A stretch of 64,000 bases of DNA from Escherichia coli (GTDB taxonomy: Bacteria; Pseudomonadota; Gammaproteobacteria; Enterobacterales; Enterobacteriaceae), in NCBI RefSeq assembly GCF_048403405.1, contig NZ_CP183129.1; one strand, 5' to 3'. This document shows positions 48,392 through 57,947 of the stretch, one piece after another. Each line of letters opens with the position of its first letter. Positions within the stretch are counted from its first letter, which is position 1. The position numbers and the translations under genes are program-made. The notes under the pieces were generated by a model. That model was not told the origin of the DNA, did not search any database, and worked only from the letters and a program-made list of their open reading frames with translations.

Positions 48392-49155
48392 ATACTGCTC
48401 GTCTGAACCAGGGCACACCATTGTTGCTCAATGCAGTAAGCAAACATTACGCGGAAAATATCGTCCTGAACCAACTGGATTTACATATTCCGGCTGGTCA
48501 GTTTGTGGCGGTGGTGGGCCGCAGCGGTGGTGGCAAAAGTACCCTGCTGCGCCTGCTGGCAGGTCTGGAAACGCCAACCGCTGGCGATGTGTTAGCGGGC
48601 ACCACACCGCTGGCTGAAATTCAGGAAGACACGCGAATGATGTTTCAGGATGCGCGTCTGCTGCCGTGGAAATCGGTGATTGATAACGTTGGGTTAGGCC
48701 TTAAAGGCCAGTGGCGCGATGCCGCGCGTCGGGCGTTGGCTGCAGTAGGACTGGAGAATCGCGCAGGGGAATGGCCTGCCGCACTTTCAGGCGGGCAGAA
48801 ACAGCGAGTGGCGCTGGCAAGAGCGTTGATTCATCGACCGGGTTTATTGTTGCTTGATGAACCGCTCGGGGCGCTGGACGCCCTGACGCGACTCGAGATG
48901 CAGGATTTGATTGTGTCACTTTGGCAGGAGCACGGCTTTACCGTACTGTTGGTGACGCATGATGTTAGCGAAGCGGTGGCAATGGCTGACCGGGTGTTGT
49001 TAATTGAAGAGGGAAAAATTGGTCTGGATTTGACGGTGGATATCCCCCGTCCGCGCCGGTTAGGGTCGGTGCGATTAGCGGAGCTGGAAGCGGAAGTGTT
49101 GCAACGGGTGATGCAGCGTGGTGAATCTGAAACTCGCCTGAGAAAACAGGGGTAA
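48388..49155 (+). CDS. ssuB: Aliphatic sulfonate ABC transporter ATP-binding protein SsuB
   Basis: 255 aa with Walker [13 protein letters not shown] signature LSGGQKQRV and Walker B LLLDEP. Confidence 0.95.
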
Positions 49156-49159
49156 ATTC

Positions 49160-49198
49160 CCGAATGGCGGCGCTATTGCCGCCATTCGGTTATTTTTT
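49160..49198. terminator. Rho-independent terminator after ssuB (between convergent ssuB and pepN)
   Basis: ccgaatggcggc-gctatt-gccgccattcgg hairpin followed by ttatttttt; the pepN stop overlaps its 3' edge. Confidence 0.75.
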
Positions 49199-51809
49199 AA
49201 GCCAGTGCTTTAGTTATCTTCTCGTACAGATCGCCAGAGAGATTTTCCAGCCCTTTCAACTGTTCCAGCGCCGCGCGCATTTTCTCCTGACGTTTGGCAT
49301 CATAACGTTTCAGGCGAATCAGCGGCTCAATCAGGCGCGAAGCCACCTGCGGGTTACGGCTGTTGAGGTCGGTAAGCATTTCCACCAGGAACTGGTAACC
49401 GCTGCCATCTTCAGCATGGAACGCTGCCGGGTTGCTGCCCGCAAACGCGCCAATCAACGAACGAATACGGTTCGGGTTGCTCATGGTAAATGAGCGATGC
49501 TGCAACAGGCCACGCACCGTCTCCAGCACATTCGCCGCCGGGCTGGTGGCTTGCAGGATAAACCATTTATCCATCACCAGACCATCCTGATGCCACTTGT
49601 CGTCGTATTCCTGCATCAGCGCGTCACGGCAAGGCAGCTGTGCAGCAACCGCCGCAGAAAGCGCTGCCAGCGCATCGGTCATATTGTTTGCTTCATGGTA
49701 TTGCTTGCTCACCAGCACGTCAGCCAGATGCGTTTCACCAAAAGCAAGGAAGCGCAGGCAGGCATTACGCAGAGTGCGTTTTGCAATATCTTCATGCTCA
49801 ACACGGTACTCGCTCTGGTAATTCGCGTTGTAAATAGCCAGTAGCTCATCCGCCAGTTCAGTCGCCAGAGTACGAGTGAGTGCTTCGCGTACTTCAGCAA
49901 TAGCAATCGGGTCGATGATATCGAACAGTTCTGCCATTTCATTGACGGAAGGCAGCGTCAGGATTTCTGCCGCCAGTGCCGGATCAATCTTCTCATCAAG
50001 CAGTACCGCGCGGAAAGCATCAGCCACATGCACCGGCAGAGACAGCGGCTGCCCTTGCTGATGACGGGCGACGTTGAGCTTGATGTAGGTTGCCAGCAGG
50101 CTTTGCGCCGCATCCCAGCGGGAGAAATCATTACGCGCATGACGCATCAGGAAGGTCAGTTGCTGATCGCTCCACTTATATTCCAGTTTCACTGGCGCAG
50201 AGAATTCGCACAGCAGCGCAGGCACCGGCTGAAAGTAGACATTATCAAAGACAAAGGTCTGTTCCGCCTGGGTGACGTTCAGCACCGAATTCACCGGATG
50301 ACCGCCTTTCTGCAACGGGATCACTTTGCCTTCGTTGTCATACAGTTCGATGGCAAACGGAATATGCAGCGGCTGTTTTTCTGCCTGATCCGGCGTAGCA
50401 GGCGTGCGCTGGCTGATGGTCAGGGTGTACTGCTCGGTTTCCGGATTATAGTCGTCTTTGACGGTCACAACCGGCGTACCGGACTGGCTGTACCAACGGC
50501 GGAAATGAGAGAGATCGACATTCGACGCATCTTCCATCGCCTGAACAAAGTCGTCGCAGGTTGCCGCGCTGCCATCATGGCGCTCGAAATAGAGCTGCAT
50601 CCCTTTCTGGAAGTTTTCTTCGCCCAGCAGGGTGTGGATCATGCGAATCACTTCCGCGCCCTTCTCGTAAACGGTCAGGGTGTAGAAGTTGTTCATCTCA
50701 ATGACCATATCCGGGCGGATCGGGTGCGCCATCGGGCTGGCGTCTTCCGCAAACTGCAATCCGCGCATGGTGCGCACGTTGTTGATACGGTTTACCGCGC
50801 GAGAACCAAGGTCAGAGCTGAATTCCTGATCGCGGAAGACGGTTAAACCTTCTTTCAGGCTGAGCTGGAACCAGTCGCGGCAGGTCACACGGTTACCGGT
50901 CCAGTTGTGGAAATATTCGTGACCAATAACACGCTCAATATCGAGGTAATCTTTATCGGTGGCGGTGTCGGTACGGGCCAGCACATATTTGGAGTTAAAG
51001 ATATTCAGACCTTTATTCTCCATTGCGCCCATATTGAAGAAGTCCACCGCGACGATCATATAGATGTCGAGGTCATACTCCAGGCCGAAGCGTTCTTCAT
51101 CCCATTTCATGGAGTTTTTCAGCGAGGTCATCGCCCACGGCGCGCGGTCGAGGTTGCCGCGATCGACGTACAGCTCCAGCGCCACTTCGCGACCAGAACG
51201 CGTGGTGAAGGTGTCGCGCAGCACGTCGAAGTCGCCTGCAACCAGCGCAAACAGGTAGCACGGTTTAGGGAACGGGTCCTGCCACTGTACCCAGTGACGT
51301 CCGTTTTCCAGTTCGCCTTGCGCAACGCGGTTACCGTTGGAAAGCAGGAAGGGATATTTGGTTTTATCGGCAATAATTTTGGTGGTAAAACGCGCCAGTA
51401 CGTCCGGGCGGTCAAGATAATACGTAATATGGCGGAAACCTTCGGCTTCACACTGAGTGCAAAGCGCATCGCCTGACTGATAAAGCCCTTCCAGCGCGGT
51501 ATTCGTCGCCGGGCTAATTTTATTAACGATCTTAAGCGTAAAACGCTCCGGCAAATTACTGATGACCAGTGCGCCCTCTTCTTCTTTCCAGGCGGTCCAA
51601 GGCTCATCATTAATATGAACAGAAACCAGTTTAAGATCTTCGCCATCAAGACGAAGCGGAGCATCTGATGCACCATGACGGACAGCCTGGCTGACCGCGG
51701 TAACGACCGTCTTTTGCGCGTCCAGGTCAAAGGTCAAGTCAATATCAGTAATCTGGTAATCCGGCGCACGATAATCGTGACGGTATTTGGCTTGTGGCTG
51801 TTGAGTCAT
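49197..51809 (-). CDS. pepN: Aminopeptidase N
   Basis: 870 aa, MTQQPQAKYRHDYRAPDYQITDIDLTFDLDAQKT...; zinc motif HEYFHNWTGNRVT...E and GAMEN exopeptidase motif. Confidence 0.96.
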   Translation of the reverse strand: MTQQPQAKYRHDYRAPDYQITDIDLTFDLDAQKTVVTAVSQAVRHGASDAPLRLDGEDLKLVSVHINDEPWTAWKEEEGALVISNLPERFTLKIVNKISPATNTALEGLYQSGDALCTQCEAEGFRHITYYLDRPDVLARFTTKIIADKTKYPFLLSNGNRVAQGELENGRHWVQWQDPFPKPCYLFALVAGDFDVLRDTFTTRSGREVALELYVDRGNLDRAPWAMTSLKNSMKWDEERFGLEYDLDIYMIVAVDFFNMGAMENKGLNIFNSKYVLARTDTATDKDYLDIERVIGHEYFHNWTGNRVTCRDWFQLSLKEGLTVFRDQEFSSDLGSRAVNRINNVRTMRGLQFAEDASPMAHPIRPDMVIEMNNFYTLTVYEKGAEVIRMIHTLLGEENFQKGMQLYFERHDGSAATCDDFVQAMEDASNVDLSHFRRWYSQSGTPVVTVKDDYNPETEQYTLTISQRTPATPDQAEKQPLHIPFAIELYDNEGKVIPLQKGGHPVNSVLNVTQAEQTFVFDNVYFQPVPALLCEFSAPVKLEYKWSDQQLTFLMRHARNDFSRWDAAQSLLATYIKLNVARHQQGQPLSLPVHVADAFRAVLLDEKIDPALAAEILTLPSVNEMAELFDIIDPIAIAEVREALTRTLATELADELLAIYNANYQSEYRVEHEDIAKRTLRNACLRFLAFGETHLADVLVSKQYHEANNMTDALAALSAAVAAQLPCRDALMQEYDDKWHQDGLVMDKWFILQATSPAANVLETVRGLLQHRSFTMSNPNRIRSLIGAFAGSNPAAFHAEDGSGYQFLVEMLTDLNSRNPQVASRLIEPLIRLKRYDAKRQEKMRAALEQLKGLENLSGDLYEKITKALA

Positions 51810-53310: not shown

Positions 53311-53445
53311 ACCTTTAATTCCGAAATCTTTCGCTGCATTTGCGAATTCTGCTTGTCTGATTGCAGATGCCAGGTAACATAGGTATCCCCCCATTTACGG
53401 GTGGACAAGTGTTTATTTTTTCCGACTATTAACAGAGAGAATATT

Positions 53446-54846
53446 ATGAGCGTTGTGCCTGTAGCCGACGTACTCCAGGGCCGCGTAGCCGTTGACAGCG
53501 AAGTCACCGTGCGCGGATGGGTACGTACCCGCCGAGATTCAAAAGCTGGCATCTCCTTCCTCGCCGTTTATGACGGTTCCTGCTTTGATCCTGTACAGGC
53601 TGTCATCAATAATTCTCTGCCCAATTACAATGAAGACGTCCTGCGTCTGACCACCGGTTGCTCGGTCATTGTGACGGGTAAAGTCGTGGCATCGCCGGGC
53701 CAGGGGCAACAATTTGAAATTCAGGCCAGCAAGGTTGAAGTTGCTGGTTGGGTTGAAGATCCAGACACTTACCCGATGGCGGCAAAACGCCACAGCATTG
53801 AGTATCTGCGTGAAGTCGCTCACCTGCGTCCGCGCACAAACCTGATTGGTGCCGTCGCGCGCGTTCGCCATACGCTGGCGCAGGCGCTGCATCGCTTCTT
53901 TAACGAGCAGGGATTCTTCTGGGTTTCAACGCCACTGATTACTGCGTCTGATACCGAAGGGGCTGGCGAAATGTTCCGCGTTTCTACGCTGGATCTGGAA
54001 AACCTGCCGCGTAACGATCAGGGCAAAGTGGATTTCGACAAAGACTTCTTTGGTAAAGAGTCTTTCCTGACCGTATCTGGCCAGTTGAACGGCGAAACCT
54101 ACGCTTGCGCATTGTCCAAAATTTATACCTTCGGCCCGACTTTCCGTGCTGAAAACTCCAACACCAGCCGTCACCTGGCGGAATTCTGGATGCTGGAGCC
54201 GGAAGTGGCGTTTGCTAACCTGAACGATATCGCGGGTCTGGCTGAAGCCATGCTGAAATATGTCTTCAAAGCGGTTCTCGAAGAACGCGCTGACGACATG
54301 AAATTCTTCGCTGAACGCGTAGATAAAGATGCCGTTTCACGTCTGGAACGCTTCATTGAAGCCGATTTTGCGCAGGTGGATTACACCGACGCAGTGACCA
54401 TTCTCGAAAACTGCGGCAGGAAGTTTGAAAACCCGGTTTACTGGGGCGTTGATCTCTCTTCTGAGCATGAGCGTTATCTGGCGGAAGAACACTTTAAAGC
54501 ACCGGTAGTGGTTAAAAACTATCCGAAAGATATTAAAGCGTTCTATATGCGCCTTAACGAAGACGGTAAAACCGTTGCGGCTATGGACGTTCTGGCTCCG
54601 GGCATCGGTGAGATCATTGGTGGCTCCCAGCGTGAAGAGCGTCTGGACGTGCTGGACGAGCGTATGCTGGAAATGGGCCTGAACAAAGAAGATTACTGGT
54701 GGTATCGCGATCTGCGTCGCTACGGTACTGTTCCGCATTCCGGTTTCGGTCTTGGTTTTGAACGCCTGATTGCTTACGTAACTGGCGTGCAAAACGTGCG
54801 TGATGTGATTCCGTTCCCACGTACTCCGCGTAACGCCAGCTTCTAA
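53446..54846 (+). CDS. asnS: Asparaginyl-tRNA synthetase
   Basis: ORF 53401..54846; the ATG at 53446 gives [45 protein letters not shown]... (466 aa), class II aaRS. Confidence 0.96.
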
Positions 54847-54887: not shown

Positions 54888-55237
54888 ATCCTTTCTGTCA
54901 AGTTATCTGTTTGTTAAGTCAAGCAATCTATTTGCAACCCCACCATAACGATCATCCTGTTACGGAATATTACACTGCAACATTTGCGCACAAAAAATAA
55001 TCCGCATTCTTATTGCGGATTAGTTTTTTCTTAGCTGATAGCACAATTTTCATACTATTTTTTGGCGTTCTGGATGTCTGAACGAGGATTTAGTGCCAGG
55101 TCGATAAAGTTTCCATCAGAAACAAAATTTCCGTTTAGTTAATTTAAATATAAGGAAATCATATAAATAGATAAATATTGCTGTAAATATCATCACGCTT
55201 CTATGGAAATATGACGGTGTTCACAAAGTTCCTTAAA

Positions 55238-55448
55238 TTTTACTTTTTGTTACATATTTTTTCTTTTTGAAACCAAATCTTTATCTTTGTAGCACTTTCA
55301 CGGTAGCGAAACGTTAGTTTGAATGGAAAGATGCCTGCAGACACATAAAGACACCAAACTCTCATCAATAGTTCCGTAAATTTTTATTGACAGAACTTAT
55401 TGACGGCAGTGGCAGGTGTCATAAAAAAAACCATGAGGGTAATAAATA
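55238..55448 (+). promoter_or_regulatory. ompF promoter region: tandem OmpR-binding sites, core promoter and ~110-nt leader containing the MicF target/RBS
   Basis: tttactttttgttacatattttttctttttgaaaccaaatctttatctttgtagcactttcacgg resembles the phased OmpR boxes; followed by ttgacagaacttattgacgg and the leader ending ...ccatgagggtaataaataATG. Confidence 0.7.
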
Positions 55449-56522
55449 ATGATGAAGCGCAATATTCTGGCAGTGATCGTCCCTGCTCTGTTAGTAGCAG
55501 GTACTGCAAACGCTGCAGAAATCTATAACAAAGATGGCAACAAAGTAGATCTGTACGGTAAAGCTGTCGGTCTGCATTATTTTTCTAAAGACAATGGTGT
55601 AAACAGTTACGGCGGAAACGGCGACAAAACTTATGCCCGTCTTGGTTTTAAAGGGGAAACACAAATCAATTCCGATCTGACCGGCTACGGTCAGTGGGAA
55701 TATAACTTCCAGGGTAACAACTCTGAAGGCGCTGATGCCCAGAAAGGTAACAAAACTCGTCTGGCATTCGCAGGTCTGAAATTCGCTGATGCGGGTTCTA
55801 TCGACTACGGTCGTAACTACGGTGTGGTTTACGACGCACTGGGTTACACCGATATGCTGCCTGAGTTTGGCGGTGACACGGCATACAGCGATGACTTCTT
55901 CGTTGGTCGTGTAGGCGGCGTTGCTACCTATCGTAACTCCAACTTCTTCGGTCTGGTTGACGGCCTGAACTTTGCCGTTCAGTACCTGGGCAAAAACGAA
56001 CGTGCTGGTATTCCTGAGCGTTCCAACGGCGACGGCGTCGGTGGCTCTATCAGCTACGAATTCGAAGGCTTTGGTATCGTAGGTGCTTACGGTGCAGCAG
56101 ACCGTACCGACGCCCAGGAAGCCGAATTCCGCGGTCAGGGTAAAAAAGCTGAACAGTGGGCAACTGGTCTGAAGTATGACGCGAACAACATCTACCTGGC
56201 AGCGAACTACGGTGAAACCCGTAACGCTACGCCAATTGAAGGCGGCTTCGCCAACAAAACGCAAGACGTTCTGTTAGTTGCGCAATACCAGTTCGATTTC
56301 GGTCTGCGTCCGTCCATCGCTTACACCAAATCTAAAGCGAAAGACGTAGAAGGTATCGGTGATGTTGATCTGGTGAACTACTTTGAAGTGGGCGCAACCT
56401 ACTACTTCAACAAAAACATGTCCACCTATGTTGACTACATCATCAACCAGATCGATTCTGACAACAAACTGGGCGTAGGTTCTGACGACACCGTTGCTGT
56501 GGGTATCGTTTACCAGTTCTAA
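55449..56522 (+). CDS. ompF: Outer membrane porin OmpF (357 aa allele with variant loop sequences)
   Basis: [47 protein letters not shown]...; C-terminal ...VAVGIVYQF with terminal Phe typical of general porins. Confidence 0.95.
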
Positions 56523-56549
56523 TAGCACACCTCTTTGTTAAATGCCGAA

Positions 56550-56578
56550 AAAACAGGACTTTGGTCCTGTTTTTTTTA
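56550..56578 (+). terminator. ompF Rho-independent terminator
   Basis: aaaaacaggac-tttg-gtcctgtttttttt. Confidence 0.8.
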
Positions 56579-56706: not shown

Positions 56707-57897
56707 ATGTTTGAGAACATTACCGCCGCTCCTGCCGACCCGATTCTGGGCCTGGCCGATCTGTTTCGTGCCGATGAACGTCCCGGCAAAATTAACCTCG
56801 GGATTGGTGTCTATAAAGATGAGACGGGCAAAACCCCGGTACTGACCAGCGTGAAAAAGGCTGAACAGTATCTGCTCGAAAATGAAACCACCAAAAATTA
56901 CCTCGGCATTGACGGCATCCCTGAATTTGGTCGCTGCACTCAGGAACTGCTGTTTGGTAAAGGTAGCGCCCTGATCAATGACAAACGTGCTCGCACGGCA
57001 CAGACTCCGGGTGGCACTGGCGCACTACGCGTGGCTGCCGATTTCCTGGCAAAAAATACCAGCGTTAAGCGTGTGTGGGTGAGCAACCCAAGCTGGCCGA
57101 ACCATAAGAGCGTCTTTAACTCTGCAGGTCTGGAAGTTCGTGAATACGCTTATTATGATGCGGAAAATCACACCCTTGACTTCGATGCACTGATTAACAG
57201 CCTGAACGAAGCTCAGGCTGGCGACGTAGTGCTGTTCCATGGCTGCTGCCATAACCCAACCGGTATCGACCCTACGCTGGAACAGTGGCAGACACTGGCA
57301 CAACTTTCCGTTGAGAAAGGCTGGTTACCGCTGTTTGACTTCGCTTACCAGGGTTTTGCCCGTGGTCTGGAAGAAGATGCTGAAGGACTGCGCGCTTTCG
57401 CGGCTATGCATAAAGAGCTGATTGTTGCCAGTTCCTACTCTAAAAACTTTGGCCTGTACAACGAGCGTGTTGGCGCTTGTACTCTGGTTGCTGCTGACAG
57501 TGAAACCGTTGATCGCGCATTCAGCCAAATGAAAGCGGCGATTCGCGCTAACTACTCTAACCCACCAGCACACGGCGCTTCTGTTGTTGCCACCATCCTG
57601 AGCAACGATGCGTTACGTGCGATTTGGGAACAGGAGCTGACTGATATGCGCCAGCGTATTCAGCGTATGCGTCAGTTGTTCGTCAATACGCTGCAGGAAA
57701 AAGGCGCAAACCGCGACTTCAGCTTTATCATCAAACAGAACGGCATGTTCTCCTTCAGTGGTCTGACAAAAGAACAAGTGCTGCGTCTGCGCGAAGAGTT
57801 TGGCGTGTATGCTGTTGCTTCTGGTCGTGTGAACGTAGCCGGGATGACACCAGATAACATGGCTCCGCTGTGCGAAGCGATTGTGGCAGTGCTGTAA
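56707..57897 (+). CDS. aspC: Aspartate aminotransferase
   Basis: 396 aa, [49 protein letters not shown]...; PLP-lysine context SYSKNFGLY. Confidence 0.97.
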
Positions 57898-57912
57898 GCG
57901 TTAAACACAATG

Positions 57913-57940
57913 AAGCCCGCTTAAAAAGCGGGCTTTTTTA
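57913..57940. terminator. Rho-independent terminator after aspC (between convergent aspC and ycbL)
   Basis: aagcccgc-ttaaaaa-gcgggctt followed by tttta. Confidence 0.75.
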
Positions 57941-57947
57941 TGCGCCT

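Follow-up and report, generated by a model that had tools for sequence, protein, structure and literature searches.

An Escherichia coli ompF allele combining typical gene ends with a deeply diverged central block and changed exposed loops

Introduction

The ompF gene of Escherichia coli is reported to have evolved as a mosaic, with alleles that fall into five major groups assembled from a restricted number of highly variable regions (Hu, Wang et al., bioRxiv 10.1101/2021.09.21.461324; AEM 2025, PMC12175518). According to the available part of the preprint text, four of the variable regions of the protein are located at loop tips, one is periplasmic, and one lies in loop L6, where residues are gained or lost (bioRxiv 10.1101/2021.09.21.461324). 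The same part of the text names loops L5-L7 of OmpF as required by phage K20. The action of microcin PDI needs the residues K47-G48-N49 in L1 (PMC7680869; PMC10233263).

The related protein OmpC, also a trimeric porin, has L4, L5 and L7 sequences that occur in many combinations (Beck et al. 2016, PMC5056734). These combinations decide susceptibility to CdiA-EC536, and probably phage susceptibility as well (PMC5056734). In that work, more than 220 variants of OmpC stand against far fewer classes of OmpF, and the OmpF variation is without effect on CdiA-EC536 recognition. Even the very different OmpF proteins of Salmonella and Enterobacter are still CdiA-EC536 co-receptors (Beck et al. 2016, PMC5056734).

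The present work concerns the ompF gene in a stretch of 64,000 nucleotides from E. coli (RefSeq assembly GCF_048403405.1, contig NZ_CP183129.1), here called the window. K-12 OmpF (b0929; PDB 2OMF/3HW9) has the same locus, synteny, signal peptide, L3 eyelet, L7 and L8. It differs by 20 substitutions, by an L4 that is one residue shorter and an L6 that is six residues longer, and by a synonymous divergence (dS) of 0.51 in a central block of the gene. As far as the accessible text describes them, the published OmpF groups have a layout of variable regions that matches the window allele, which at a guess belongs to a short-L6 group such as that of CE10 or E2348/69. Mosaicism of ompF and the exact protein are already on record, and there is no hint of a new function or of a change in the pore. 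Unlike the present analysis, the available text of the mosaic-evolution paper does not quantify the synonymous depth of the alleles or their placement relative to other Escherichia species.

Results

The gene and its surroundings

The open reading frame at 55449..56522 (+) is intact, with 357 codons and a stop in the ORF list, and its product matches the OmpF sequence of PDB entry 3HW9 over the full length (phmmer, E = 8e-216). The protein reaches 751.9 bits on the NCBIfam equivalog model 'porin OmpF' (NF007446; cut-off 583), and stays below the cut-offs of the PhoE (486 vs 599) and OmpC (465 vs 484) models. The Porin_1 family (PF00267) is precomputed for an identical protein. The gene order pncB-asnS-ompF-aspC-gloC is that of K-12, with asnS at 53401-54846 and aspC at 56707-57897 (ORF list) as the neighbours of ompF. 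Over 24 kb around the gene, the window matches E. coli MS 69-1 at 100% identity; in this isolate from a human colon, the gene is annotated as ompF / WP_000977905.1. The signal peptide of 22 residues (55449..55514, +) is the K-12 one, the C-terminus reads VYQF with the C-terminal Phe present, and the AlphaFold2 (AF2) model has 16 strand segments and a long L3. The gene is a bona fide ompF in its normal position between asnS and aspC.

Upstream, the proximal promoter and 5' UTR occupy 55239..55448 (+) by alignment with K-12, and the OmpR boxes F1-F3 are presumed to lie at their established positions. The proximal promoter has one difference from K-12, a G to T change at 55248 (TTTTGGTTACAT to TTTTTGTTACAT) in the region of the F1 box; the 5' UTR, the ribosome-binding site and the DNA of the signal peptide are the same. 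About 15 further differences are found 200-520 bp upstream of the ATG (54890-55200), where they are denser than in the flanking genes. With this promoter, ordinary osmoregulated expression would be expected.

On the 3' side of ompF, a terminator-like hairpin (CAGGAC-TTTG-GTCCTG, 56548..56577, +), followed by a run of T, can be read from the sequence. The aspC-gloC intergenic region of the window (57898-57947) holds only a plain terminator hairpin, whereas the K-12 locus (L001, 4299-4519) has about 171 extra bases within the aspC terminator region. These extra bases are REP/BIME-type palindromes (GCCTGATGCGCTACGCTTATCAGGCCTAC ... GTAGGCCGGATAAGGCG...GCATCCGGCA), so that the two loci show a REP presence/absence polymorphism between aspC and gloC. 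Further away, at ssuB-pepN (48000-51500) and in mukB (63500-64000), the divergence of the window from other carriers of its ompF allele reaches 5% (23-25 differences) in a 500-bp interval, and K-12 also differs where it was compared (50431 onward). The pattern suggests more recombination mosaicism nearby, which would be independent of ompF.

Changes in the protein and their location

In a global alignment with K-12 OmpF (362 aa; PDB 3HW9; NC_000913 b0929), the 357-residue protein of the window is about 92% identical over the full length, with 20 substitutions, an insertion of one residue and a gap of six residues; identity with K-12 OmpF is thereby excluded. In mature K-12 numbering, the substitutions are G26D, E29V, M38K, T77K, Y90F, V93A and F96I in the first part, D164G/T165I/A166P/R167E in L4, and Y182F, N198D, L199A, Q203E, P204F, L205R, N207Q and T247E/S248G in the last part. 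The inserted residue is in L4, where K-12 NER-DTARR corresponds to NERAGIPER and the placement of the gap varies with the aligner. The residues absent from the window protein are K-12 TNKFTN (241-246).

An earlier note on this DNA had described a 357-residue OmpF allele with clustered variant patches, and all patches agree with the alignment as it quoted them. They comprise a 16-residue patch that departs from its 16-residue K-12 counterpart, AQKGNK in place of K-12 AQTGNK, a 10-residue patch in place of KYADVGSFDY, a 12-residue patch in place of NER-DTARRSNG, and two further patches of 15 and 10 residues for which the K-12 states are RTNLQEAQPLGNGKK and PITNKFTNTSGFANKT, respectively. Only Y182F, which turns K-12 YEYEG into YEFEG, had been missed.

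The limits of the loops were taken from the DSSP assignment of the AF2 model, which was built from a 79-sequence alignment and has a mean pLDDT of 79, with low confidence in L3. The strand limits agree with literature anchors, namely E71 at the tip of L2 and K47G48N49 in L1. The placement of the variant patches in loops, as proposed in the earlier note, is borne out by the model for 16 of the 20 substitutions and for both indels, which are extracellular and distributed over L1, L2, L4, L5 and L6. It does not extend to Y90F, V93A, F96I and Y182F, which are conservative changes on the periplasmic side.

L1 and its rim (55587..55628, +) carry G26D, E29V and M38K (precursor residues 48, 51 and, at the rim, 60), and the K47-G48-N49 motif in L1 reads K-D-N. 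The latching loop L2 (55713..55751, +) carries T77K (precursor residue 99), with E71 at its tip conserved. In L4 (55986..56033, +), DTAR is replaced by AGIPE through four substitutions and the one-residue insertion (precursor 186-190). L5 (56103..56144, +) has the six substitutions N198D to N207Q (precursor 221, 222, 226-228 and 230), and L6 (56223..56255, +) is without the TNKFTN of K-12 and has EG instead of TS (precursor 264-265 plus the gap). The most altered loops are L5 and L6. Among the sequences compared, AGIPE (L4) and EFR (L5) occur only in the window allele class. Counted from the aligned loop changes, the net charge of the extracellular face is lower than in K-12 by about 2 units per monomer. 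The four periplasmic substitutions are located in turn T2 and the adjoining strand ends (Y90F, V93A and F96I; 55782..55802, +; precursor 112, 115 and 118) and, in the model, at the periplasmic end of strand 8 (Y182F; precursor residue 205).

The constriction loop L3 (55809..55922, +), which includes PEFGG, is unchanged in the protein, and so are L7, L8 and the C-terminal beta-signal. The eyelet residues K16, R42, R82, R132, D113 and E117 are those of K-12. As a result, there is no sequence reason to expect altered antibiotic permeation, and the suggestion in the earlier note that the allele may change permeation is not sustained. We infer that the channel works like that of K-12 OmpF and that the exposed face differs.

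A deeply diverged central block

In a sliding comparison with K-12 over about 11.6 kb, divergence is 0-1% in asnS, in aspC and at both ends of ompF (119 nt on the 5' side and 281 nt on the 3' side), and rises to 8-24 differences per 100 bp from about 55560 to 56260. The diverged central block (55568..56241, +; gene nt 120-793, 674 bp, approximately codons 40-265) encodes strands 2-12 and loops L1-L6. It contains 85 of the 86 nucleotide substitutions relative to K-12 and both indels (Fisher p = 5e-17), and its DNA is 12.6% diverged (about 13% in sliding windows; 87% identity). Synonymous changes follow the same pattern, with 49 of 50 changed codons inside the block. For codons 40-265, the Nei-Gojobori method gives dS = 0.51 and dN = 0.054, and thus a dN/dS of about 0.1. 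In the same block, other E. coli alleles (K-12, O157:H7, ATCC 25922 (B2) and others) have mutual dS values of at most 0.14, K-12 and E. albertii are separated by 0.53, and K-12 and a second Escherichia species-representative genome (L074) by 0.32. The near-identity to K-12 outside the variant patches therefore holds for the protein and fails for the DNA.

Clustering of the amino-acid changes in loops could be taken as a sign of recent point mutations in the loop-coding patches of a K-12-like gene, driven by positive selection. A K-12-like gene with local substitutions was also implied by the earlier note, and ompF has been described as a target of positive selection in E. coli (work cited in bioRxiv 10.1101/2021.09.21.461324, available part of the text). 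This explanation is extremely improbable. It is at odds with 49 synonymous codon changes and a dS of 0.51 in a field of E. coli alleles that do not exceed 0.14, with the sharp boundaries of the block, and with outgroup sequences that favour the window state at 14 of 27 differing columns, including the short L6. So much silent change over the whole 674 bp rules out a recent point-mutation origin.

The synonymous load, the sharp edges and the low divergence of the flanks argue for a mosaic with an ancient haplotype rather than for clustered new mutations. The ends of the gene are those of E. coli, and the haplotype between them is at least as old as a divergence between species. Recombinants between the allele classes are also found. 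The ompF gene of strain LR-45 (L083, 495-1583) matches that of the window exactly up to nt 236 and resembles K-12 from there on. It shares all 14 sites of the L1 region at which K-12 differs, which places the breakpoint between gene nt 213 and 237. The ompF gene of strain 2023CK-01509 shares a five-site patch with the window at nt 414-432. The locus thus combines a sharp change in divergence, phylogenies that differ between segments, and recombinants between classes, as is characteristic of mosaic genes.

Among the protein matches, P0025 is another recombinant, with a window-type L1 module on an otherwise K-12-like gene.

Placement of the block among Escherichia sequences

Neighbour-joining trees with bootstrap were calculated separately for the central block and for the gene ends. 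The block falls within the Escherichia OmpF clade (96-100% bootstrap), and is placed outside a group of E. albertii, L074 and the common E. coli alleles with 95% support when all positions are used and 77% with third positions. Support for the basal placement weakens to 50-61% when only codons with an unchanged amino acid are considered. A grouping of the block with the common E. coli alleles is seen in just 0-19% of the replicates, and both gene ends have 100% support for a position within E. coli. With moderate support, the central block would thus branch at or below E. albertii, at a depth older than the species split.

The polarity of the differences is informative. TNKFTN is missing from E. 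albertii, from L074, from most of 13 outgroup OmpF sequences and from most OmpF of the Citrobacter/Enterobacter group, so that the short L6 represents the ancestral state and an insertion is present in the common E. coli allele. The six-residue difference noted earlier stands, but its description as a shortening has to be reversed. At the remainder of the 27 differing alignment columns, outgroups favour the K-12 state at 10 and neither state at 3. These counts fit a deep lineage rather than a recent burst of change. The window states F90 and A93 are also those of most outgroups.

Both E. albertii (L003) and L074 OmpF resemble the window protein in the short L6 (PI-xGGFANKT) and in F90 and I96, and L074 also shares A93 and F182; they differ from it in L1, L4 and L5, which are K-12-like. 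These two are the closest non-E. coli proteins among the matches listed, with 94% identity to the window protein, followed by Citrobacter with 87%. In the central-block DNA, identity to E. albertii and L074 is only 85-86%. No donor species for the block is present among the matches listed, in which Escherichia species other than E. coli are represented by E. albertii and L074; a known species such as E. fergusonii or E. marmotae may thus be the source.

The placement also bears on a possible origin of the block within the same genome, by gene conversion from a paralogous porin gene (ompC, phoE or ompN). Porin paralogs share conserved stretches, and a singleton protein sequence, P0009, resembles an OmpC/OmpF hybrid. 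Nevertheless, such an event is hardly credible for the block, which has 87% DNA identity to K-12 ompF and lies inside the Escherichia OmpF clade; the window protein scores 752 bits on the OmpF model and does not reach the cut-offs of the PhoE (486 bits) and OmpC (465 bits) models. Paralog conversion is therefore ruled out at the scale of the block, and patches of a few codons could still have been exchanged in this way.

P0009 itself (348 aa, from an ENA contig of 2.4 kb) is OmpC-like in its first ~100 residues and window-type OmpF in the remainder. It could be a true ompC/ompF hybrid, the alternative being a chimera from metagenome assembly.

Distribution of the allele class

A database search for the same allele, as proposed in the earlier note, identifies the window protein as RefSeq WP_000977905.1, which is annotated in AR_0013, 15.TR.026_OXA, S1bESBLb and MS 69-1. 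The allele is neither rare nor new, with a central block at least 99% identical in 486 of 5,416 complete E. coli genomes, or about 9%. Only 12 genomes have a block identity between 90% and 99%, and 4,924 are in the range of 80-90%. The near-empty interval indicates that the window ompF is a discrete allele class. The occurrence of the same sequence in 486 independent complete genomes also rules out a chimera or an error of assembly or sequencing, to which we attach no probability. Among 5,426 complete E. coli genomes, a window-type L1 block (at least 95% identical) is found in 765, the L4-L6 block in 488, and the whole block in 486-487. The difference between the first two counts leaves approximately 280 genomes with the L1 module only.

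At least three flank haplotypes, 1-3% apart per 500 bp, are found among the carriers, while ompF is identical; members of the class differ from one another at 0-2 positions per kb, a very low diversity. Such uniformity despite diverged flanks suggests a fairly recent spread. Together with a block that branches at or below E. albertii, it would be compatible with introgression, i.e. a recent import of the central block from another Escherichia species or a close relative. We regard this origin as quite possible, though short of probable. Among the matches listed, with E. albertii and L074 as the other Escherichia species, there is no donor, and the low identity to the block DNA of E. albertii and L074 weighs against an import from these two. 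Moreover, the window protein belongs to a protein cluster of 544 members, and all named members that were read are from E. coli. The window-type class as a whole has been seen only in E. coli, in a data set in which other Escherichia species are barely sampled.

Many carriers are clinical or environmental isolates that produce an ESBL or a carbapenemase, including ST38. The strain NMBU_W05E18, typed as ST38 of phylogroup D (PMC7311804), has a 24-kb match score equal to that of the sequenced carrier 15.TR.026_OXA; one carrier group is therefore ST38, phylogroup D. The association with multidrug-resistant clones, several of them with a frameshifted ompF, could be read as evidence for a resistance-adapted porin, selected for reduced entry of antibiotics. 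This is very unlikely, as L3 and all eyelet residues are the same as in K-12 and the allele is also present in the commensal colon isolate MS 69-1. In addition, the events of the type that confers resistance are frameshifts and in-frame deletions on top of the allele. The usual way to resistance by porin loss is through such disruptions of the window-type allele, not through the allele as such.

In three of seven other carriers examined, ompF is annotated as a frameshifted pseudogene (Ec-U14-1, L089; E597, L090; elppa9, L091; ~7895-9078). The singletons P0005 and P0007 are in-frame deletions of the window-type allele that remove L2-strand 4 or L3.

Discussion

The data are best explained by a functional, ordinarily regulated ompF that belongs to a natural mosaic class with an ancient central block, an altered surface and a normal pore, a reading that we consider highly probable. 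According to this model, homologous recombination within the gene would have placed or kept the central haplotype between ends and flanks that are typical for E. coli. The haplotype itself would be as far from the common E. coli allele as another Escherichia species is expected to be. Purifying selection would have preserved barrel, trimer contacts and L3 eyelet, and thus a normal general-diffusion porin, whereas the replacements, concentrated on L1, L2, L4, L5 and L6, would present a different cell surface to the exterior.

From the position of the changes, altered recognition by phages, microcin PDI and antibodies appears likely. Candidates are K20-like and T2-like phages among the former, and possibly receptor steps of CdiA or colicins. 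However, divergent OmpF proteins can still serve CdiA-EC536, which means that a change in the loops need not entail a change in recognition.

Surface recognition is the type of trait that frequency-dependent selection may keep polymorphic. In a more far-reaching version, the block would be older than the split between E. coli and its sister species, and would have been maintained by long-term balancing (frequency-dependent) selection exerted by phages and bacteriocins, and its loop modules would continue to move into other ompF backgrounds. We consider this version tentative and rather unlikely. If it is true, ompF would be a polymorphism of trans-specific depth at a bacterial receptor locus, and the selected differences would be those at the site for microcin PDI (KGN to KDN) and at the K20-type phage site (L5/L6).

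For the mosaic class as such, the practical consequence is that knowledge of the OmpF class of a strain may help to predict its host range relations with phages or bacteriocins. Lineages with the class of the window include ST38, which is spreading globally. With its high synonymous divergence, the central block may serve as an example of how old receptor haplotypes can persist and recombine in E. coli.
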